Below are positions 3,934-63,986 of a stretch of DNA of 64,000 nt, piece by piece. Under the pieces are notes generated by a model. That model was not told the origin of the DNA. It saw only the letters and a program-made list of their open reading frames with translations, and did not search any database. Location of the stretch: contig CAWEMM010000006.1 of assembly GCA_963810095.1 (NCBI GenBank), positions 1,419,353 through 1,483,352 on the forward strand, written 5' to 3'. How positions within the stretch are numbered: the stretch's first letter is position 1; the number at the start of each line of letters is the position of its first letter. A program made the translations under genes and the position numbers. Origin of the DNA: an uncultured Chloroflexia bacterium (GTDB taxonomy: Bacteria; Chloroflexota; Anaerolineae; CG2-30-64-16).

Positions 3934-4738
3934 CGAACGGCCGTTGATCCTGTTGACCAACGACGACGGGATTGCTTCGCCCGGGTTGCTGGCGGCAGCG
4001 GAGGCGGTGTGCGACCTGGGCGAACTGCTAATTGTCGCGCCCGCCACCCAACAGACAGGGATGGGTCGCGGCACGCCGCCGATCCTAAACGGGGCGCTGA
4101 CGGTCGAGACGCTGCGGGTCGGGTGCGAGGACGTCCGTGTGTATGCATTGAACGGCTCGCCCGCGCAGACGGTCGTGATTGCGGTGCTTGGCATCGCGGA
4201 GCGGCGGCCGGCGCTGGTGGTCTCAGGCATCAACCACGGCGAGAACCTGGGCACGGCGGTGACCGGGTCGGGCACGGTTGGGGCGGCGCTGCAGGCGGCC
4301 GAAATGGGGATTCCGGGCTTGGCCGTATCGCTCGAGGTCGAGAAGGTCTACCACTACAACCACGCCGAAGACTTGCACTGGAGCGCGGCCGCGCACTTTA
4401 CGCGCTATTTTGCACAGCGCATGCTGGCCCAGACCATGCCGTTCGACGTCGACGTGCTCAAGGTGGACGTGCCGGCCGAGGCGACTGCCGAGACGCCCTG
4501 GCGTATCACAAGACAGGCGCGGCAGTCGTATTACAAGGTCTATCCGCCAAAGATGCGTCTGGCGCCCGGGCCGCTGGCAGAGCTCGACTATGGGATCGAG
4601 ATCGATTGGGATGACCTGCCGCAGGACACGGACGTCTACGTCTTTGCGCGCGAGCGGGTGGTGTCGGTGACGCCGTTGAGCCAGGATCTGACGTCACGTA
4701 CGGACGTTGCCGGCCTGGAGCGCCTGCTGCGGGGCTAG
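3926..4738 (+). CDS. surE: 5'/3'-nucleotidase SurE
   Basis: N-terminal LLTNDDGI motif. 270 aa, typical SurE length. Confidence 0.9.
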   Translation: MADERPLILLTNDDGIASPGLLAAAEAVCDLGELLIVAPATQQTGMGRGTPPILNGALTVETLRVGCEDVRVYALNGSPAQTVVIAVLGIAERRPALVVSGINHGENLGTAVTGSGTVGAALQAAEMGIPGLAVSLEVEKVYHYNHAEDLHWSAAAHFTRYFAQRMLAQTMPFDVDVLKVDVPAEATAETPWRITRQARQSYYKVYPPKMRLAPGPLAELDYGIEIDWDDLPQDTDVYVFARERVVSVTPLSQDLTSRTDVAGLERLLRG

Positions 4739-4784
4739 TGTTTGGTGGGCGACCGGCCAGAGCATGACGGGGCAAATGGTGATG

Positions 4785-5081
4785 TTTGTTGGGGGCCGTC
4801 TGGCCCCCAACGCCCCCGACGGGGGGCTGCGCCCCCTCGTCCCCCAAAGGTTAAGGGGACGCGTGGCTTCCGCCAATTGGCCCATTTGAGCGTCCACATG
4901 GCGGGGCCAGACGGAAGCGGCTTGCGGGAAACCGGCATTTTGTGGAAGCACGGTTCTGATGCCGACTGCCGTGAGCGAGTCCGGCTGCTGCCCGCTGTCA
5001 ACACGGCCGGGGGCGTTGACCTTGGGGGTTTCGGGGGCAAGGCCCCCGAGGCGGGGGCGGCGGGGCAAGCCTGCCCCCGCC
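4785..5081 (+). repeat. composite GC-rich palindromic repeat element, copy A (module 1 TTGTTGGGGGCCG..CCCCCAAAGG 4785-4850; spacer with CCGGCATTTT; module 2 GGGGGTTTCGGGGGCAAGGCCCCCGAGGCGGGG 5021-5081)
   Basis: The same modules recur at 14937-15135, 42901-43290, 58390-58476 and 61603-61740. Stacked perfect hairpins read directly. Confidence 0.6.
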
Positions 5082-5135
5082 AAGACAAGATGTAGCAAGG
5101 GCGGCGGGGCAAGCCGGCCACAACAGTGAGGTTAA

Positions 5136-14936: not shown

Positions 14937-15135
14937 CGCCTGATGACTATTTTGCGGGGGCGCTCTTGCCCCCGCCGCCCCGACGCGAGTGGCTGCCCAC
15001 GACCGACTCATTGGCGGGGAGCGCTCTCGCCCCCGACGCGAGGGGTTGCCACGACCGACTCATTGGCGGGAGCGCTCTTGCCCCCGCCGCCCCCGACCAG
15101 GGGCTGCGCCCCTTGGAACCCCAAAGGCAGCGCTG
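14937..15135 (+). repeat. GC-rich repeat element, copy B, containing a roughly 56-nt tandem duplication (about 2.5 copies, 14957-15124)
   Basis: GCGCTCTTGCCCCCGCCGCCCCGAC...CGACTCATTGGCGGG repeats. Ends with GGGGCTGCGCCCCTTGGAACCCCAAAGG, as in the other copies. Confidence 0.55.
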
Positions 15136-42888: not shown

Positions 42889-42900
42889 GGGGGCTTTCTT

Positions 42901-43290
42901 TTGTTGGGGGCCGCCGGCCCCATCCATTGGATATGTCTTCTGTTGGGGGCCGCCGGCCCCCAACGCCCCGGCCGAGGGGCTGCGCCCCCTCGACCCCCAA
43001 ACTTACTCGGGGAACAGTTCATTTGTGGAGCAACGGCTGGGGCCCACGGACCGCTGCGGGGCTGCCAGTTGCGGGCTTGCACGAGGCCGGCATTTTAGGA
43101 AATGCGCGAGCAATAGCCTCCTCGGGGACATGCAGACGCCGATCTCTTTGGCGATAACTACGCCAGGAGCGTAGCAATTGGGGGTCTCGGGGGCAACGCC
43201 CCCGAGGCGGGGTTGGCAGGGGCCGGCCGGCCCCTGCCAAAAGACCGGAACCTCGAAGCGGGGTGGACGGAGGCCGCCGGCCCCTGCCTA
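42901..43290 (+). repeat. composite GC-rich repeat element, copy C (module 1 duplicated at 42901-43001; module 2 at 43177-43290)
   Basis: Same modules as copy A, including the spacer motif CCGGCATTTT. Confidence 0.55.
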
Positions 43291-49075: not shown

Positions 49076-49170
49076 GGGGTGCTCCGTTCACGTACTTCGG
49101 GCGGATTATAGCATACGGTCCGACGCCCACCAAGGCATCTTCATTCCGTTTCGCGTGTGTGTTATGATGA

Positions 49171-51416
49171 TTGCTCCCTATGGCACGCAGCATCGTCGAT
49201 CTAAGCACCCTTCCATGGCGTTTCGGCCAGGTCGCCCGCCAGGGCTTTTCGCACGCGGCCGAGCGACGACCGGCGCGCGGTCGCCAACTGGGAACCCGCG
49301 TCAGTCCCCGGCGACGTGCGAGCGGATCTGCTGGCGACGGGATATCTGCGCGGCCTGGATACACCGGAGGATCTTCCGCGGTCAGGCTGGGTGGACAGCG
49401 TCGACTGGTGGTATCGGGTCGATATCGATCCGGTCGAACCGGGAACCACGGTGGTTCTCGAAGCCGACGGGATCGACTACCTCAGCAGCGTGTGGCTGGA
49501 TGGAGAGTTTCTGGCCGCGCACCAGGGCATGTTTGCGCGGCAGGCACTCGTGCTCCCGCCGCCGCATGGAGGCGCCCGGGAAGCACGAGCTGGCGGTGCG
49601 GATTTGGGGCGCGGGTGCGCTGCCGCGCCTCCCCAACCCTCCGCTGCGCCGGGGCCTGCGCCGGCTGATCTGCGGCCTGGGTGTCGTCGACGAATACTTC
49701 CCCGATCGCCTCGCCACCCCCAAAGCGCAATACAGCTTCGGGTGGGACTTCGCGCCGCGCGTGCTGAGCACGGGCATCTGGGACGGCATCCGCCTGGTCC
49801 ACTGCCGGGGCGCCTATCTTTCCGACGTGCAGGTGCTTGCCGAGCCGCTGAGCGAGGGCGACCCGACCCCTGTCCGCTGGACCGTGCGGCTTACGACCCG
49901 GCGATTCGAGGAGCAGCGGCTCACTGCGCGGGTCGAGCTGCGCACGCTCGAAGGTGAACGGATCCCGCTGGCGCGCGATACCTTCGCGTTGGGCGAGGGC
50001 AATGCGGCGGACCTGGTCTTTGATTCGCCGCGACTGGCCCGCTGGTGGCCGTGGGACCAGGGTGAGCCGGCCCTCTACCGCCTTTCAGTTCGACTGTTCG
50101 ACGAGCGCGGGCCGGCCGACGAGGCGGAGACGGTGGTCGGGCGTGCGCACGGTGGGCCGCGAGCGCTTCAAGAACGGGCAGCCCTGGCGTTTCACGGTCA
50201 ACGGCCGCTCGGTCTTCCTGCGCGGGGCGAACTGGGTGCCCGCCGACATCCTGCCCGGCCGGGTGGCCGAGAATGACTATGCCGGCCTGATCGGGCAGGC
50301 GCGGGCCGGGGGGGTCAACTTCCTGCGGGTGTGGGGCGGCGGCATCCGCGAGAAGCCCGCGTTCTGGGAGCTGTGCAACCGGCAGGGCATCCTGGTCATG
50401 CAGGAGTTCCCCCTCGCTTGCACGTTCCTCGATCACTACCCGCGCGATCCGGGCTACCTCTCCGTGCTCGAGTCTGAGGCGCAAGGCATCGTCCGCGGCT
50501 TGCGCAACCACCCAAGTCTGATCGCCTGGTGCGGGGGCAACGAGATCAGCCCGCAACGTGAGCGGCTTCCTCTGCGTACTATTGAGCGGGTGCTGGCGCG
50601 CGAAGACCCCGGCCGGCCCTGGATTCCGGCTTCTCCGTCGACAGGGCGACATCCACAACTGGGACGTGTGGCATGGCGGCGCGCCCTGGCAGTCGTTGGC
50701 GCGGGTTCGCGCCCCGTTCATGAGCGAGTTCGGCGTGCAGGCGCTGCCCCATGCCGACACCATCGCCGAGATGTTTCCGTCGGGCCCGCCCACGCGGCTG
50801 GACGATGCCGGGTGGGCCGCGCGCAAGCTGCAGGCCGACAAGCTGCGTCACTACTGTGGGCCCTTGCCCGAAGAGGACCTGGTAGCCACGATTGAGGCTA
50901 CTCAGAGGACGCAGGCCGCGGCTCTGCAGGCGGGGATCGAGGCGTGCCGGCTCCGCCGCGAGGGCTCGGGCAGCCCGCGCCCATGCGGCGGGCGTGGCCT
51001 TCTGGCAGTTCAATGAGCCGTGGCCCGCGGTCTCCTGGTCCCTGGTCGACCGGCGCGGCCGGCCAAAGGCGGCCTACAGTATGCTCATGCGCAGCTACCA
51101 ACCCCTGCTCGTGGCGGCCGTGTTCGAGCGGCGGGCATGGCGGGCGGGCGACCGGTTCGACGCCGAGATCTGGGTGGTGAACGACGGGGCGGAAGAAGCA
51201 GCAGAGGGCGAAGTCGAGGCGCTGTTGGACGGGCGCAGCGTCTGCCCACGCAGCCGCGTCGCGGCGCCTCCCGCGTCTGCCCGGCAGGTTGGGGCATTCG
51301 GCGTGCAGTTGGCGGGGCCCCCGGCCACCCTCGCGTTGGCGTGGCGGGCAGGCGGTGCGGTTCTTGCCGCCAACGAGTATGACCTGCAGGTCTACTTGCC
51401 GCCGCCGCAGCCCTGA
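49171..51416 (+). pseudogene. beta-mannosidase-like GH2 glycoside hydrolase, broken into at least 4 frames
   Basis: GH2 segments (RGANWVP, NEISPQRE, FWQFNEPWPAVSWSLVD) spread over ORFs 49316..49957, 49954..50895 and 50892..51416. Confidence 0.6.
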
Positions 51417-55539: not shown

Positions 55540-58386
55540 CTAGCATCGAAGCCTGGCGGATCGTTCCCTACGAAGGAGGCGCATCGCCCGTTCAAGAAGG
55601 TGCGGGTGCGCGACGAGGCCGCGGGTGCGCGCGGTCGTGCGGCACCTGATGAACGACGAGTGCGTCGCCTTGCTCGGTCCGCCCATGAGCGAGAAGAGCC
55701 ACCTGCTGCGGGACGTGGCGGAGGCGCTGGAGCAGGGCGGTCGCTTCCGGCCGCTGCATATCGACTTGTGGCGCACACGATCGAACGATGAGGCCGCCTT
55801 CTTCACCAGCCTTGCCGAGTCTGCTGGCCGACGAGCTGCGGGACGCCGGCGCCGCGAGTCCCGACGAGCCGGCCGAGCACGCGCGGTTCCAGGGTTATCT
55901 CGCCGCTTGCGAATGCGAGCGGCCGCAGCCTTGCGCTGCTGATCGATCACCTGCAGGCGCTGCCGCACGACCTCGTCCACAGCCTGCTGCGTCGCCCTGC
56001 GCGCGGCCTACATGGAGCGCGAGGCCGACGCGCCGCACAGCCTGGTCGCGGTGGTCACCGGCGGCATCAACCTCGTCGGTCTGTCCGTCCGGCCCGACCT
56101 CGCCGTTCAACATCGCCAAACCCGTGGTCGCGACACCGCTGACCCTCGAACAGAGCCGCGCGCTGGCCGAGGCGACGCTCAAGCGCTGGAGTGCTCGGCA
56201 TCCGCCAACGGCATGGACCGCTTGCTGAGCCTGGGCGCAGGCGACCGGTACCTGATTCCGCGGCTCTGCGCCGACAGCTCCGAACTGGTCAGCTTGCACC
56301 GCCTGCACCGCGTGACGTCGGCCATTGCGGATCGCGCCGGCGCGGGCGCTCGTCGCCCGCGGACGCGGCCGCCGCCCGTTCGCGCCGCCATCCGCATGAT
56401 CGAGGAAGACCCGGACACGGTGCTGGACGTGCTGCACCTGCTCGACCACGGCTCGCTGCCGCGCTCACGCTCGCGCCAGATGCCGACGCGCACCGGCACG
56501 GACCGGCTGCAGCTCTCGGGCGCGGTGGTCCTGGTCGGATGGGTGCTACGGCTTTATGAACGAGGCGTACCGCGAGGCGTTGGCCGCGCACTTCACCACC
56601 GACCGGGTCGGGCACATGTTGCGGATTGCCGGGCCGGTGGAGCGAGGCGATCGCCTATCTCGCGCCGCAGCGGGCGCGCGTCGCGCGTCCGCAGCTGCTC
56701 GAAGCCATCGTCCAGATCGATCTATGCGAGCTGACTCGTCCGAACAGGCGTATCGGGCTGCTGGCCGACGGCCTGCGGCTCGGCTTCGGCCTGTCGGACA
56801 TCGGCATCTACTGCGGCGCTGCCGGCCGACTGCTCAGCTCGACCGCGTCTATCCGCCCAAGGACGGCGGCCCGAGGAGCACGTCGACCTGCGCGATCCCG
56901 GGTGCGTCGAGGCCCAGACCTTCAACCTGGGCAACTATGCGCTGCGCGGCACCGCGGATGAGGCGCGCCTGGTCGTCGCGCTGGCATCGGCCAGCCGGCC
57001 GCTCGGCGTCGTGACGATCGAACGCTATGTGCAGAACCGCGATCCGCACGAGCTGCCCGACGAACTGCCCGACCTGCTGCGTTTCCTGCAGCACGCAGTC
57101 CGGGGCGCTGGAAAACGTCATCACTCGGGCTGCCTACCGCGCCATCGGACAGGCCGTGCTGGATGCCAAGGCCATGCAGCCGACCGTGGAGCGGGTGCTC
57201 GAGACGGTAGCGGAGGCGCTTGGGCTGCGACTACGGCGCCCTGTATCTGCGGGATGAGACCGCCGCCAGCTGGAGATGGCCGCAGCAGTCGGCAGGGTGG
57301 TGACGGAGGAGTGGCAGGCGCAGGCGCGCTTTCCCCTCGACGGCCGACACCCCGCGGTCACCGCGCTGCTGGAGGGGCGGATGTTGACGGCGCGAGGGGG
57401 CGAGGACGCAGAGGACCGCGTGCTGCACGACCGTTTCGGCCTGCACCGCTACCTGCGCGTCTTCCTGCCTCTGCTCGCCGGCGGCGAACAGCTCGGCACG
57501 CTCGAACTGGGCTACGCGAGCCGGCCGCATGCGCATGTCGGATGAGCTACAAGCGGACGCTGGTCGAGTTCGCCGACCAGGTGGCGATCGCGGTGCATAA
57601 CATGCTGCTGCTGCGGCGGACGGACGAGGCGCTGGCACGCGCAAGCTGGCCGAGCTTGTCGGTGGGCCGCGAGATTCAGCTCAGCCTGCTGCCGAAGGTC
57701 ACGCCGACCGTTCCCGGCTGGCAGTTCGCGGCCATGTACGAGGCCGCCCGCACCGTCGGCGGCGACTTCTACGACTTCTGCGAATTGCCGGGTCCGCCCG
57801 CATCGGCTGGGCGTCGTCATTGCCGATGTGGCGGACAAGGGCGTGCCGGCCGCGCTGTTCATGGCGGTCAGCCGGACGATCATTCGCAGCGTCGCGCTTC
57901 ACCGGCCGCGGCCCGGCCGTCTGCCCTGATGCGAGCGAACCAACTGATTCTCGCCGACAGCCAGGCCGACCTGTTCCTGAGCGCGATCTACCTGGTGCTC
58001 GAGACCGACAACGGGCGCGGATTTCGTTCAGCAACGCGGGGCACAACCGGCCGCTGCTGGTACCGCGCTGCGGACCGCGCAGCTCACGCGAGCTGACCCA
58101 GCGCGGCATCATCCTGGGCGCGTTCGACGAGATCACGCTGCAGGACGACACGGCTGGACCTGGCCGCCGGCGACGTGCTGGTGCTGTACACGGACGGCGT
58201 CACGGACGCGCTCAACGCGGACGGGCGAGGAGTTCGGCGAGCAGCGCCTGTTCGACGTGGTGCGGGGCAGCGCCGCACGGCAGCGCGCAGGAGATCCTGT
58301 GGGCGATCACGGGCGCGCTGGCGGGCTTCATCGGCGACACGGAGCAGGCGGACGACGTGACCTGCGTCGTGATCAAGAAGGACTAG
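55540..58386 (+). pseudogene. multidomain signalling protein (P-loop NTPase - GAF - PP2C/SpoIIE phosphatase); many frameshifts
   Basis: ALLGPPMSEKSHLL P-loop region. GAF segment. PP2C motifs [45 protein letters not shown]. All are in different frames. Confidence 0.5.
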
Positions 58387-58389
58387 GCC

Positions 58390-58476
58390 TTTGTTTGTTG
58401 GGGCCCGGATGACCCTCAACACCTGGTTGCATGGGCCGCCTTGCTGTTGGGGGCCGTCGGGCCCCCAACGCCCCCG
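58390..58476 (+). repeat. GC-rich repeat element, copy D left part (interrupted by the IS481 insertion)
   Basis: TTGTTGGGGCCCGG...TTGCTGTTGGGGGCCGTCGGGCCCCCAACGCCCCCG ends exactly at the IS terminus. Confidence 0.55.
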
Positions 58477-58562
58477 TGTATAGACCGGGGACATAGTAGA
58501 CAGTCGTTCGGAGACATGGTAGACGCTAGAATGGGAATAACTGCCACCGGAAGGAGGCTGAT

Positions 58563-59705
58563 ATGCCCTGGCGAGAGGCAAATGCCATGTCCTTACGACT
58601 TGATTTCGTGACCCGAGCTGGTCACGAAGCTGCTAACGTGCGGGCCCTGTGCCGCGAGTTCGGTATCAGCCCGAACACTGCGTACAAGTGGCTTGTGCGC
58701 TACCAGGCGGCGGGGCCCGCGGGGCTGGCCGATCGCTCACGGCGCCCGAACGCAGTCCGAGCCGACACGCCGCCCGGCCGCGAACAGTTGGTGCTGGCGA
58801 CGCGCCAGGCCCACCCGGCCTGGGGCGGCCGCAAGCTCAAGGCCTACCTGGAGCAGGCCGGCTATGCGGACGTGCCGGCAGCTTCCACCATCACAGCCAT
58901 TCTGCGCCGGCACGGGGCGCTGGATGACCAGGAGGGCGCTCAGCATCGCGCCTTTCAGCGTTTCGAACGTGAGGCGCCCAACGAGCTGTGGCAGATGGAC
59001 TTCAAGGGCCATTTTGCGCTCGGGGATGGTACGCGCTGCGACCCCTTGACGGTCCTCGACGACCATGCGCGCTTCCTGTTGGCGCTGGACGCCTGTGCCG
59101 ACGAGACCCGCCGCACGGTGCAGGCCGCGCTGACCGGCGTCTTCGAGCGCTACGGCTTGCCCGAGCGCATCCTGTGCGATCATGGGCCACCGTGGGGCGC
59201 CCCCAATGCCGGCGACGTGTACACGACGTTGAGTGCGTGGCTCTTGCGGCTGGGCATCGGGGTCGTGCACGGGCGGCCCAAGCATCCGCAGACGCAAGGC
59301 AAGGACGAGCGATTGCATCGCACGTTGCGGGCCGAGTTGCTGCGCCGGCAGACGTTCGCCGATCTGCCGGCCTGTCAGCCCGCCTTCGATACCTGGCGGC
59401 AGATGTATAATGAACAGCGCCCGCATGAGGCGCTAGCCATGCAGGTGCCGGCGGCCCGCTATCGGCCCAGCCCGCGCCCGTGGCCCGCCCGCCTGCCCGC
59501 GATCGAGTATCCGGCCAGCGACCGAGTGCGCCGGGTGCAAGATAAGGGCCAGATCAAAGTCGGCGGCCACGAGTTTCGCATCGGCAAAGCCTTCATCGGC
59601 TACCCGGTGGGCCTCCGGCCCACGAACCAGGACGGCTGCTATGACGTTTACTTCTGCGCCCAGCGCATTGGCCAAATTCAACTATCCGCCGGGCAACGGA
59701 TTTAG
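58563..59705 (+). CDS. IS481-family transposase (DDE integrase core), intact
   Basis: 380 aa. HTH N-terminus and rve core (WQMDFKGHF...LCDHGPPW...NEQRPHEAL). Confidence 0.9.
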   Translation: MPWREANAMSLRLDFVTRAGHEAANVRALCREFGISPNTAYKWLVRYQAAGPAGLADRSRRPNAVRADTPPGREQLVLATRQAHPAWGGRKLKAYLEQAGYADVPAASTITAILRRHGALDDQEGAQHRAFQRFEREAPNELWQMDFKGHFALGDGTRCDPLTVLDDHARFLLALDACADETRRTVQAALTGVFERYGLPERILCDHGPPWGAPNAGDVYTTLSAWLLRLGIGVVHGRPKHPQTQGKDERLHRTLRAELLRRQTFADLPACQPAFDTWRQMYNEQRPHEALAMQVPAARYRPSPRPWPARLPAIEYPASDRVRRVQDKGQIKVGGHEFRIGKAFIGYPVGLRPTNQDGCYDVYFCAQRIGQIQLSAGQRI

Positions 59706-59804
59706 CTCAGCCTGTGGGTAAGGGGCTGTCCGAAAAGTAATCGGGCGGCCCCTTTTTTGCGTGCTTTTCTCGCGTTCTTTAAGGATTCATGGTTTAATGG
59801 GGGC

Positions 59805-61402
59805 ATGAAACGCAAACCTGCTGCCCCCGTCTTCAAGCCCTACACGATGGCTCAGCCGCAGTTGCTGCCGCCGAGCCTGGATGAGTTGATCGAGCCGGAC
59901 CACCTGGTGCGGGTGGTAAATGCGGCGATCGACCAGTTGGATTTGCGGCCGCTGCTGGCGCAGTACCCCGGCGGCGGGACGTCCAGCTATCATCCGCAGA
60001 TGCTGCTGAAGGTGTTGGTGTACGCCTATTGCAGCAAGATCTACTCGTCGCGGCGGATTGCGGCGGCGCTGCGGGAGAACATTCACTTCATGTGGTTGAG
60101 TGGCGGGAACCGGCCGGACTTTCGCACGATCAACGACTTTCGCGGGCAGCGGATGAAGGGCGTGATCGACGCGGTGTTCGCCGAGGTGCTGCAGTACCTG
60201 GTCGAGGCGGGGTACGTGCAGTTGGAGCACTACTTCGTCGACGGGACGAAGATCGCCGCCGATGCGAACCAGCACAAGGTGGTGTGGGCCAAGCGCACGG
60301 CGCGTTACCAGCAGCGGGTGCGGGAGCAGATCGCGTGAGTTGCTGCGGCAGATCGAGCAGGTGAATGCTGACGAGCAGGCCGAGTACGGCGATGCCGATC
60401 TGGAAGAGCGGGGCCGGCGGTGGGGGTGGCGAGATCGACTCGGACGCAACTCAAGGAGCGCATCGACCAACTCAACCAGCGGCTCCGCGAGCGTCAGCAC
60501 CCCAAGCCCGAAGCCCAGGCAGCCGAGAAGGCGCTGAAGAAACTGGCGACGGATTGTCTGCCGCGGTTGGAGAAGTACGAGCAGCAGACCGCGACGCTGG
60601 CGGGGCGGTCGAGCTATGCCCAGACCGACCCGGACGCCACGTGCATGCGGATGAAGGAAGACCGCGGCGCCGAGCGGCCCTGGCCCAAGCCGGCCTACAA
60701 CGTGCAGGTGGGCACGGAAGGGCAATTCATCGTCGGGTTCAGCGTGCACGACCAGGCGGGCGACACCGGGTGCCTGATCCCGCATCTGGAGCAGGTGCGC
60801 CAGAACACCGGCGGCCGCTTACCGCAGAACGTGGTGGCGGATGCGGGGTACGGCAGCGAAGAGAACTACGCCTATCTGGAACAGCAGCAGGTGGGCAACT
60901 ACCTCAAGTACAACACCTTCTACCAGGACACGCATCATTACCGCGACCCGGCCGTGCTGCGGGCGCACCAGTTCCGGGCCGAGAACTTCGCCTACGACGC
61001 GGCCACCGACACCTTCGTCTGCCCGGCCGGCCAGCGGCTGCACTTCCAGTACACCACCCGCTACACCAGCGACAACGGCTACCTGAGCGACCGCCGCATC
61101 TACGAATGCTTCGCGTGTGCCGACTGCCCGCTGCGCAGCCAGTGCACCCGGGCCAAAGGCAACCGCCAGATTCGCATCAGTTTCCGCTTGCTCGCCTACC
61201 GCAAGCAAGCCCGCGACAACCTGACCAGCGCCGACAGGTGAGCGCTTACGCGCCGCGCGCTCCGTCGAGGTGGAAACCGTCTTCGGGCATATCAAACAGA
61301 ATATGGGCTTCCGGAGATTTCACTTACGCGGGCGGGCGAAAGTGAAGACCGAATGGGGGCTCGTGAGCATCGCTCACAACCTGAAGAAGGTGGCGGCCGC
61401 AT
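59805..61402 (+). pseudogene. IS1182-family transposase split over three frames
   Basis: N-terminal part in ORF 59757..60338, middle in 60420..61241, C-terminal tail (RRAVEVETVFGHIKQNMGFRRFHLRG...) to 61402. Confidence 0.7.
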
Positions 61403-61417
61403 AGGCCGCTTTTTTTC
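61393..61417 (+). terminator. intrinsic terminator (GCGGCC-GCATA-GGCCGC + T7) at the IS1182 transposase 3' end
   Basis: Read directly. Confidence 0.5.
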
Positions 61418-61602
61418 TCCGCTTTCCGCGAGCTCCAACTCATCTCCCGCTGACTCCGAATCGGCACAAGAAAGGGGCTGCCTGGATGTTCTTTCCAGAC
61501 AGCCCCTTACCCACAGGCCCGACGCGACGACACCATTCTTTAAGGTGTTCAGGTGTCTACGATGTCCCCGAACACCTGTCTACGATGTATTCGGTCCATA
61601 CA

Positions 61603-61740
61603 CCCCGACGAAGGGCTGCGCCGCTTCGACCCCCTAATTTGCTCGGGCAGCACCGCATCCGCCGTCTAACGCGCACGGCTGCCGGCCGGGACGGGGCCGA
61701 CAGTGGCAGGCTTGCACGAACCGACGCGATGGAAAATGTA
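61603..61740 (+). repeat. GC-rich repeat element, copy D right part (after the IS481 insertion)
   Basis: ACGAAGGGCTGCGCCGCTTCGACCCCCTAATTTGC... continues the module-1 consensus, followed by the CTTGCACGA spacer motif. Confidence 0.5.
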
Positions 61741-61742
61741 CG

Positions 61743-63986
61743 TCAGGCGGTTTCGCTTTGCATCAAGGGCGGCGGGGGCCCGCGGGACCGGGCCAAAGCG
61801 GGAAACCGCCGCCCGTCACAGGCAGGGTGCCGGGCCCACGCAGGACGTCCGACTTGAAGCGCGGGATGATACGGTAGCCCGCGTCGGGCGTCTTCTCGCC
61901 CACGGACTGCCCCAGGACGCCCTGCCGCGGCCCACATCTGCCCGATCTGCACGTAGGGGCGGCGCCAGGGCAGGCTCTCGGGGAAGTAGATGCGGATCAG
62001 CCCGGCCCTGTCTTTCAAGACCAGGCCGCGCGTCTCGTACTTGACCACCGCACCCACGACCTGCACGAGCCTCCCCTCGTTCGCTTCTGCCAGGTCCGCC
62101 GAGGTGACCGGCTGCGGCGCGACAGCCTTGCCTTCGCCCAGCACTGTTAAGTAACCGGCATCGGGGACAGATAACTCGGTTTCTCCGTAGAAGTCGCGGG
62201 TCCAGCCCGTGACCCGCACCCGGCTGCCCGGCTTCAGCGTGGGATAGTCGCCTTTGCGCAGGTAGACCTTGATGCCCCCTGTCTCGTCCTGCAAGTAGAT
62301 CGTCTTCGCAATCAGCCCGGGCGGGAAAGTCACGGTGCCGCTGACGACGGCGCGACTGTCTACCTTCGCCGAGCGGGCCGCCGCGACGGTTTGCGGAACC
62401 GGCGGGGGCGTGGCTTGGGGCGGAGCAGGCGCCGCGGGCGCAGGAGGCGGCAGCAGGCGGTTCGGCTGGCCCGGCGTCGCCTCGCAGTCGGACGTCCACC
62501 CGCCTACGCCGTCGGTGTTCCGACAGTAACTGCGGTCTGCGCCCGGCCCATGGTCATAGGCGAAGCGGTCTGCCAACGTCCCGTCGCTCCTGGTGAGGGT
62601 CACCGAGTCGCGCCAGTCGCTCAGCGAGAGACGGGTCTGGCCGCGGAAGAACAGCATGAAGCTGTGGGGCCAGATCACGGCGCCCGCGGGAATGCGGTAG
62701 CTCGCGGCCTCATCGCCGATCTGCCAGCCCTCCAGGGGGACGGCGCTGCCCGTCGGATTATGCAACTCGATCCATTCGTCCGAGAAGTTCGCCGTGCCGT
62801 CGCGATCCCAGTCGACCGAGCGCGGGTCAGGGAGGATTTCATTCAGCTTGACCTTCAGCGCATCGGGCGGGAGCGGGGTGGGGGTCGGCGTCTGCGTGGA
62901 CGTGGGCGAGGCCGTGACGGTGCCGGTGGGAGTGCGCGTTGGCGTGACAGTGCGCGTGGGTGTGGAGGTGCGCGTGGGCGTGACGGTACGCGTGGGTGTG
63001 GAGGTGCGGGTGGGCGTCGGCGTGGCGGCGGGATCGCGGGTTGGGGTCGCGGTCGGCGTTGCGGTGGGCACGAGGGTCGTGCGCTCGCCTGGGTTGGGCG
63101 CTTGGCGGGTCCAGTCCGCCGCGCTGTCACTGTCCTGGAGGTTCCAGCGGCCTAGTGACTCGCCGGCACGCACTTTCTCGCAGGGCGGCTCGTTAATGCT
63201 CGTGTCCGAGCCGTAGCTCATGGCGTCGACGACGGTGGCGTCGGGTGCGAGGAGGCGGACCGCGTCGCCGGTGTTGCTCAGCCCGTTGCCAATGGCGCCC
63301 TCGAGGCTGACGAGCAGGCCCGAGAAGCCGGGGAAACTGGCGCGGAACGCGGCTTCTTTGGCGGCAACAACGGCATATTCGCCGGGCAGCAGGCTGAACT
63401 CGGGCAGCGCGTCCTGGCCCGTGTTGTCGCCGATGCGCCAGCCCGAGAGCAGGACCGCGTCGCCCGTGGGGTTCACGATCTCGACGAACTCCCAATCGGC
63501 ATCCGCGCCGTCTTGGATAGGGTCGTACAGCACTTCACTTAGGAGCAGCTTCGGCCAAGCCGCCGGATACGGGAGAGTTGGCGAAGGCGTCGGCGTGGCT
63601 GTGCGGGTGGAGGCGGGCGTGCGCGTGACTGTAGGCGTGCGGGTGACCGTGGGACTTGGGCCGGCCGTTCGCGTCGCAGCCGGCGTGCGGGTTGCGCTCG
63701 CGGTCCGAGTCGGAGTCCGCGTGAGGGTTGCAGTCCGCGTGATTGCGGTCCGCGTTGGGCTCGCGGTGCGGGTTGGGCTGGGGGTGCGGGTCGGCGTCGG
63801 AGTGGGCGTGCTTTCGATCGTCCCGCTCACGCCGGGATTGGGGACCGATTGCCCATACCAGTCTTCTGCCGTGCCGGTGTCCATGTCGCTGGGGATACGC
63901 GACAAGGACTCGCCGGCCGCTACCCCGGGGCACGCCGGGTCGAACGCCGTCGTATCTGAGCCATAGCTCATCGCATCTGCCAGCAC
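61743..63986 (-). CDS. large secreted protein with at least two lamin-tail (LTD) domains, Pro/Thr-rich linkers and a C-terminal OB-fold-like domain; 5'-partial (continues past the window end); C-terminal tail possibly frameshifted
   Basis: LTD motifs (LSEVLYDP...EFVEIVNPTGDAV...GWRIGD; NEILPDP...EWIELHNPTGSAVPLEGWQIGD). Runs of TPTxTxTP codons. Confidence 0.7.
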   Translation of the reverse strand: MLADAMSYGSDTTAFDPACPGVAAGESLSRIPSDMDTGTAEDWYGQSVPNPGVSGTIESTPTPTPTRTPSPTRTASPTRTAITRTATLTRTPTRTASATRTPAATRTAGPSPTVTRTPTVTRTPASTRTATPTPSPTLPYPAAWPKLLLSEVLYDPIQDGADADWEFVEIVNPTGDAVLLSGWRIGDNTGQDALPEFSLLPGEYAVVAAKEAAFRASFPGFSGLLVSLEGAIGNGLSNTGDAVRLLAPDATVVDAMSYGSDTSINEPPCEKVRAGESLGRWNLQDSDSAADWTRQAPNPGERTTLVPTATPTATPTRDPAATPTPTRTSTPTRTVTPTRTSTPTRTVTPTRTPTGTVTASPTSTQTPTPTPLPPDALKVKLNEILPDPRSVDWDRDGTANFSDEWIELHNPTGSAVPLEGWQIGDEAASYRIPAGAVIWPHSFMLFFRGQTRLSLSDWRDSVTLTRSDGTLADRFAYDHGPGADRSYCRNTDGVGGWTSDCEATPGQPNRLLPPPAPAAPAPPQATPPPVPQTVAAARSAKVDSRAVVSGTVTFPPGLIAKTIYLQDETGGIKVYLRKGDYPTLKPGSRVRVTGWTRDFYGETELSVPDAGYLTVLGEGKAVAPQPVTSADLAEANEGRLVQVVGAVVKYETRGLVLKDRAGLIRIYFPESLPWRRPYVQIGQMWAAAGRPGAVRGREDARRGLPYHPALQVGRPAWARHPACDGRRFPALARSRGPPPPLMQSETA

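Follow-up and report, generated by a model that had tools for sequence, protein, structure and literature searches.

We found two insertion sequences (ISs), one inside the other, in a 64,000-nucleotide stretch of the genome of an uncultured Chloroflexia bacterium (contig CAWEMM010000006.1; this whole stretch is called the window hereafter), and the locus was very probably produced by two successive structure-directed transpositions. In the first, a 1367-bp IS481-family element would have entered the 6-nt unpaired linker between the two hairpins of a repeat resembling repetitive extragenic palindromic (REP) sequences, which lay between convergent SpoIIE-type and LTD genes, with duplication of 5 bp (CCCCG). 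The chemistry of this step, judged from the IS3 and IS481 families, may have been copy-out/paste-in, and two GACATnGTAGAC sub-repeats in each IS481 end are putative transposase-binding sites. In the second, later step, an IS1182-family element would have entered the stem of a 49-nt hairpin just past the IS481 stop codon, probably through a blunt cut in the stem as proposed by analogy with IS1272/TnSha1, and the central 25 nt of the hairpin would have been removed without a target-site duplication (TSD). The leftover 12-bp hairpin arms mimic an extension of the IS1182 ends. An IS481 copy on another contig (L099) shows the state before this second step, and the window the state after it.

The IS481-family element and the repeat that it divides

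The outer element spans 58477-61602 and ends in imperfect terminal inverted repeats (TIRs) of about 50 bp that start with TGT; its left end and the reverse complement of its right end are identical at 39 of the 50 outermost positions. The ends begin with TGTATAGACC (left) and TGTATGGACC (right), and each holds two copies of the GACATnGTAGAC sub-repeat. Neither this end motif nor that of the IS1182-family element was found in the rest of the window or in 100 shuffles. The TSD directly abuts both ends. A single uninterrupted open reading frame (ORF) of 1143 nt encodes the transposase (380 amino acids), with no programmed frameshift such as that of the IS3 family. The protein carries the Pfam domains rve, rve_3, HTH_32 and LZ_Tnp_IS481, and the NCBIfam model NF033577 (transpos_IS481; cut-off 224) matches it with 265.1 bits over profile positions 2-284 of 284, whereas the IS3 model stays at 103 bits, below its cut-off of 160. 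In alignments, the 120 best database relatives of the transposase cover 96-100% of its length. The element is assigned to the IS481 family by the family model above cut-off, the single ORF, and the TIRs with a short TSD. Exact-protein look-ups of the window transposase (plus two alternative starts) and of P0001 returned no record.

We then examined the flanks. Joined without the IS, they (58387-58476 and 61608-61745) match two other places in the window continuously across the junction, namely 4787-4848 (89%) and 42940-43084 (74% over 146 nt), and the same repeat family was recovered independently as direct repeats. A hidden Markov model (HMM) of the repeat was built from four copies, and the window was searched with it using nhmmer. 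This search gave three full uninterrupted copies, the split copy and about five partial copies, all of them confined to four inter-ORF loci within the 64 kb. In the split copy, HMM positions 3-40 lie to the left of IS481 and positions 35-74 to its right. The rejoined site folds as single-stranded DNA into two GC-rich hairpins (-21.1 kcal/mol, z = -3.3), and the duplicated CCCCG sits in the 6-nt unpaired linker that separates them; the repeat units have two hairpins each, with -21 to -24 kcal/mol (z = -3.3 to -4.9). Within the window, the repeat resembles REPs and bacterial interspersed mosaic elements (BIMEs) by its stable GC-rich hairpins and its extragenic, multi-copy and clustered occurrence. 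The REP/BIME-like clusters are located at 4780-5090, 14945-15130, 42895-43250 and 58390-58476 plus 61603-61745. Full units have one orientation, and weaker matches are present on the opposite strand at 5018-5084 and 43174-43244. The family is also present on contig L099.

A preliminary description of this stretch, made from the sequence alone, had proposed an IS1182-family element nested in an IS481-family element with TIRs at 58477 and 61602, a CCCCG duplication, an intact outer transposase and a repeat copy split precisely by the insertion. The end comparison, the rejoined flanks, the uninterrupted frame and the scores of both elements with their family models bear out these points. It had also proposed that the IS481-family element targets the repeat, and had suggested looking for other copies at the same repeat position. 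Contig L099, reached through a cluster look-up (P0241), provides such a copy. It is 1367 bp long, has 98.9% nucleotide identity to the window copy, contains no IS1182 and is located between a multicopper-oxidase gene and glnE, with CCGCC as its TSD. When this IS is removed, the site matches HMM positions 3-73 and places the insertion near position 41, compared with position 40 for the end of the left flank in the window. In both copies the 5' end of the transposase gene faces hairpin 1, and the two sets of flanks are different variants of the repeat. Targeting of the REP-like repeat is supported because the L099 copy, at a different locus, has entered a member of the same repeat family and agrees with the window copy in orientation and, to within about 1 nt, in position; the sample is small, with two independent copies at one position of the repeat. 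The highly similar copy elsewhere also suggests that the element has been active in transposition. In two further close relatives, the insertion lies 9 nt past a GGTGGGGGCC-GCC-GGCCCCCACC hairpin followed by a C-run (L097, 82% amino acid identity) or 5 nt past AGGGGGC-GTTC-GCCCCCT (L082, 76%). A degenerate TIR pattern gave zero matches in a collection of metagenome contigs, which apparently lacks short contigs such as L097, whose sequence matches the pattern.

The IS1182-family element and the hairpin of IS481

The extent of the inner element was taken from 13 relatives (L084-L096) found in unrelated contexts, with 79-94% amino acid identity. Their shared sequence runs only from (A)GGGGCTGTCC to GGACAGCCCC(T), and since homology starts and stops there, the element is 59722-61506 (1785 bp; ±1 nt at each end) and not 59710-61518. 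It thus starts 16 nt past the IS481 stop codon. The GGGGCTGTCYGRAAAG TIR at both of its ends is conserved in all 13 relatives, and no target duplication was found in these relatives or at the window copy. The preliminary description had put the inner ends at 59710 and 61518, with a landing point 4 nt past the stop codon. The outer 12 nt on each side, GCCTGTGGGTAA (59710-59721) and TTACCCACAGGC (61507-61518), are instead hairpin arms that belong to IS481. Uninterrupted IS481 relatives (L081-L083, L097 and L098; 76-82% amino acid identity) possess a 49-nt hairpin with these exact outer arms, beginning 4 nt past the stop codon. This hairpin folds with -24 kcal/mol (z = -6.0), and its consensus fold includes one compensatory pair, in which both sides are changed in L098 and pairing is kept. 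The hairpin of L099 is intact (GCCTGTGGGTAAGTGGGCAGGCCACACGCCTGCCCACTTACCCACAGGC) with a perfect 22-bp stem. Compared with it, the window copy has only the outer 12 + 12 nt left, and the central 25 nt are gone. The lengths agree: 3126 - 1785 + 25 = 1366, against 1367 bp for the IS481 of L099. Relative to L099, the inner element therefore has the features of IS1272-type insertion, that is, a position in a hairpin stem, partial loss of the hairpin and no duplication. Owing to the wrong inner boundaries, the earlier reading overlooked that a hairpin, inside IS481, was the target of IS1182 as well. Its phrase "hotspot of mobile-element activity" adds nothing beyond the two structure-directed insertions.

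The 49-nt hairpin, with about 85 bp around it, is found only in the close subgroup L081-L083 and L097-L099, whose ISs measure 1366-1373 bp. Most clade members (among L001-L080) measure 1281-1290 bp and have the right TIR almost directly after the stop codon. We considered whether the hairpin could be a footprint, or a MITE (miniature inverted-repeat transposable element), left by an IS1182. This was rejected, as the polarity of the inner stem is opposite to that of joined IS1182 ends and the stem is perfect over 22 bp in L099. Each IS1182 end is itself a hairpin (59721-59755 and 61472-61508; the right one is AAGGGGCTGCCTGGA-TGTTCTT-TCCAGACAGCCCCTT), and this form may relate to the preference of the family for hairpin targets. 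In L087 (about 2400-2500 and 4200-4260), an IS1182 relative of the P0141 type is flanked by AAAACCA and TGGTTTT, with inverted-repeat flanks, and sister copies extend 3 nt further at the right end. These flanks are consistent with insertion into a palindrome with a small loss of sequence.

The fragments of the IS1182 transposase carry the Pfam domains DUF772, DDE_Tnp_1 and DDE_Tnp_1_6. When stitched together, they give a protein that is 94% identical to P0121 and scores 446.8 bits with the NCBIfam model NF033551 (transpos_IS1182; cut-off 270). This score and the TIRs held in common with relatives assign the element to the IS1182 family. Intact relatives have 531-534 amino acids; relative to L084-L086, the window frame has four indels (+1 at about 60336, -2 at about 60408, +1 at about 60443 and +1 at about 61234), and the sequence as given does not encode an intact, functional transposase. 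The frameshifted state noted in the preliminary description is thus confirmed, but its term "decayed" is insecure. We see roughly even odds for biological decay, and the chance that the four indels stem from consensus errors in the assembly falls only a little short of even. Frame breaks in host genes were judged from Pfam domain splits and three-frame reading. Within about 900 bp, the adjacent SpoIIE/PP2C-type gene (57480-58386) has at least six frame switches with all conserved motifs kept, while its orthologue in contig L100 is one GAF-SpoIIE ORF of 939 amino acids; this pattern suggests either consensus indel errors or a pseudogene of very recent origin. A GH2 (glycoside hydrolase family 2) gene at 49155-50895 (about 49.1-50.9 kb) is likewise split across two overlapping ORFs that differ in frame; one carries Glyco_hydro_2, the second the TIM barrel (Glyco_hydro_2_C). 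Where the protein sequence itself shows no decay, such breaks resemble consensus indel errors more than they resemble old pseudogenes, and such errors are therefore a serious alternative for the IS1182 indels as well. Two indels, +1 and -1, lying about 15 nt from each other (around 58745-58765), also distinguish the IS481 ORF of the window from that of L099; they compensate each other, with about five residues altered and the ORF kept. On the other hand, none of the four IS1182 indels is inside a long homopolymer, three of them are clustered in a substitution-rich stretch, and the flanking IS481 and LTD ORFs (the latter 2244 nt) are unbroken.

Hairpins at insertion sites of the IS481 clade

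A scan of genome contigs retrieved relatives of the IS481 transposase with at most 58% amino acid identity, and these were used for clade statistics, not for this particular IS. The sample comprises 64 distinct insertion sites of relatives with 51-58% identity in 33 assemblies. As controls, we drew positions at random in 62 of the 64 loci, avoiding ORFs of 100 or more amino acids. The ends of the clade members are about 50 bp long and bipartite, with TGTAyAGACC and two GACATnG-type sub-repeats. A perfect stem of at least 6 bp was present within 5 nt of the insertion at 39 of 64 sites (61%), compared with 13.7% of controls (Fisher p = 7e-17), and stems of at least 8 bp at 44% compared with 5.5%, which corresponds to an enrichment of about 4- to 8-fold. 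A TSD of 5-6 bp was found at 36 of the 64 sites. At least one hairpin site occurs in 21 of the 33 assemblies, under eight phylum- or class-level labels and in two unlabelled metagenome contigs. Typically, the target has a loop between a C-rich and a G-rich arm, and the TSD often coincides with this loop or with an arm end; in the L066 target, CCCCTCCCC[GGTTC]GGGGAGGGG, the loop is the TSD. Nitrospirales OZ242346 has six or more insertions in the repeat CCTCCCCTTTGTAAGGGGAGG, and both orientations occur among them. We considered and rejected a fixed orientation, in which the C-rich arm would invariably be on the 5' side of the transposase gene, as Nitrospirales copies occupy the same site both ways. 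We lean towards the view that the window element belongs to a cross-phylum IS481 clade, with members in assemblies that carry the labels Chloroflexota, Nitrospirota, Planctomycetota, Acidobacteriota, Proteobacteria, Verrucomicrobiota and Latescibacterota, and that this clade, as a group, selects GC-rich hairpins with C-run and G-run arms, whatever the REP family of the host.

An association with repeats might also result from survival instead of targeting, if insertions persist only in repeat-rich intergenic DNA. The repeat clusters at the four intergenic loci make up a sizeable share of the non-coding DNA in the window, where there is only one IS481 copy. We nevertheless regard survival as an improbable explanation. 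The agreement between the window copy and L099 in position and orientation concerns a repeat of about 70 nt at unrelated loci, hairpins are 4- to 8-fold rarer at the random non-ORF positions than at insertion sites, and in Pseudomonas fluorescens SBW25 all five copies of an IS481-family element are at the same REP position, and one of these insertions was seen to occur in the laboratory (Ngan et al. 2024, PMC11708052). Several observations weigh against structure-directed insertion and its extension to the clade. Usable flanks in this repeat family are available for just two copies of this particular IS (window and L099), and the insertion site of L081 (81% amino acid identity) has neither a hairpin nor a TSD. 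The hairpin of the window copy before the IS1182 insertion is reconstructed from L099, not from the same lineage. By the strict criterion used here, about 39% of the clade sites have no perfect stem of at least 6 bp. Insertions from one genome are only partly independent, as one repeat family can be hit repeatedly, and the control positions are an approximation of true intergenic space.

Two further alternatives concern the boundaries, and we give very little credence to either. In one, the IS1182 element would have its own perfect 21-bp TIRs at 59710 and 61518 and would have landed at an unremarkable site 4 nt past the stop codon. A 28-nt inverted repeat, 93% complementary, does join 59710-59737 and 61491-61518, but the 13 relatives lose homology exactly at GGGG.../...CCCC, and the outer 12 nt, joined by 25 more nt, are present in IS481 copies without IS1182. 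In the other, IS481 would carry the repeat halves as extended ends, as could be suspected from flanks rich in inverted repeats, into which local alignments of the two ends often continue; however, intact IS-free repeats occur at three other loci, the flanks of the window copy and L099 differ as repeat variants while the ISs are nearly identical, and a TSD is at the junction in both.

Table 1. Coordinates of the nested ISs, the divided repeat and related features in the window.
Feature	Position	Strand	Basis
Left TIR of IS481	58477..58526	+	starts TGTATAGACC, two GACATnGTAGAC; conserved in L081-L083, L097-L099
IS481 transposase, 380 amino acids	58563..59705	+	Pfam, NCBIfam; 98% amino acid identity to L099 copy
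Right TIR of IS481	61553..61602	-	end comparison, two GACATnGTAGAC
Left TSD copy, CCCCG	58472..58476	.	direct repeat
Right TSD copy, CCCCG	61603..61607	.	direct repeat
Left half of split repeat: hairpin 1 (TTGGGGGCC-GTCG-GGCCCCCAA) and C-rich linker	58440..58476	+	nhmmer, DNA fold
Right half of split repeat: hairpin 2 (GAAGGGC-TGC-GCCGCTTC) and CCCCCTAA tail	61603..61642	+	nhmmer
Left hairpin arm, GCCTGTGGGTAA	59710..59721	+	intact hairpin in L099, L097, L081-L083, L098; consensus fold
IS1182-family element, TIR GGGGCTGTCYGRAAAG, no TSD	59722..61506	+	homology limits of 13 relatives
IS1182 transposase frame, four indels	59806..61404	+	three-frame translation; alignment to L084-L086; NCBIfam
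Right hairpin arm, TTACCCACAGGC	61507..61518	+	inverted repeat; relatives including L099
Uninterrupted repeat, empty-site reference	4781..4854	+	flank match, HMM, fold
Uninterrupted repeat	15059..15129	+	direct repeats, HMM
Uninterrupted repeat	42936..43006	+	flank match, direct repeats, HMM

Genomic context, precedents and significance

Two convergent genes enclose the IS pair: the SpoIIE-type gene ends at 58386, and the LTD gene, on the minus strand, at 61743. L100, with an LTD protein of 60% identity, likewise has convergent LTD and GAF-SpoIIE genes, and the 74-bp spacer between them contains a simple hairpin and no IS; L100 is too distant to count as a true empty site. A search with the LTD protein for a related strain with an empty site gave nothing above 64% identity, and those LTD homologues that have names are labelled Chloroflexi, Anaerolineae or Caldilineae, as would fit a host from the Chloroflexota. 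For the physiology of the host, the insertions have no bearing beyond a longer spacer between the two convergent genes. The 3.1-kb composite could still be mobile, judging from its sequence, because the IS481 ORF and both IS481 ends are intact.

The prototype of the family, IS481 of Bordetella pertussis, is about 1.05 kb long with a single ORF and a short TSD, and it is described as favouring the short sequence NCTAGN, not hairpin repeats. The closest precedent for the outer insertion is the IS481-family element of SBW25, which is about 1.3 kb long, has 49-bp inverted repeats and inserts into REPs (Ngan et al. 2024, PMC11708052). The window element resembles it, as far as its description allows comparison, in overall length, the single transposase ORF, the inverted repeats of about 49 bp and the short TSD. 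It differs in host phylum and REP family, in the length of the TSD (5 bp against 4 bp in SBW25) and in the additional 49-nt post-stop hairpin of its subgroup. Other REP-targeting ISs are IS1397 and ISKpn1 (IS3 family), ISPpu9, ISPpu10, ISPa11 and IS621 (IS110) and ISRm22 (IS4); the survey that lists them covers the families IS3, IS110, IS4, IS256 and IS5, and IS481 is not among these (Tobes and Pareja 2006, PMC1525189). The window element shares with the surveyed ISs recurrent insertion at a fixed position in an extragenic palindromic repeat. The mechanism differs from that of the IS110 members, which use a bridge/seeker RNA and a DEDD enzyme, whereas the window IS481 has a DDE transposase of the rve type. 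For the inner insertion, the precedent is IS1272/TnSha1 of staphylococci, also in the IS1182 family, whose insertions are reported to lie in hairpin stems, with part of the hairpin deleted and no TSD formed (Furi et al. 2016, PMC4923244). The window IS1182 is similar in all three respects and in its low specificity for primary sequence. In contrast to IS1272/TnSha1, its hairpin is inside another IS and not in a host terminator, it comes from a high-GC Chloroflexota genome, and its transposase frame is broken as given. Both target habits at this locus, of IS481 for a REP-like repeat and of IS1182 for a hairpin, are thus already precedented. Our literature search gave no further relevant report of IS481 elements with REP-type or stem-loop targets, and the breadth of the hairpin pattern across the clade appears to be undescribed in the literature searched.

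The nested locus is a tidy but ordinary example of known target habits, and the modestly novel lead is the clade-wide hairpin preference. For annotation, the locus shows that a palindromic target can pass for the TIRs of the inserted IS; here the IS1182 ends had been shifted by 12 nt on each side. For the IS481 family, it is a second, phylogenetically remote case of an element using REP-like repeats, and the clade sample gives a first quantitative hint that the REP/hairpin habit is common to a large IS481 clade. To our knowledge, recognition of structure by a DDE transposase of the rve type had previously been noted for one Pseudomonas strain only. If the clade-wide preference is true, it points to recognition of structure (or of C-runs and G-runs) by such a transposase, and the recognition of hairpin or cruciform DNA by these enzymes becomes testable.

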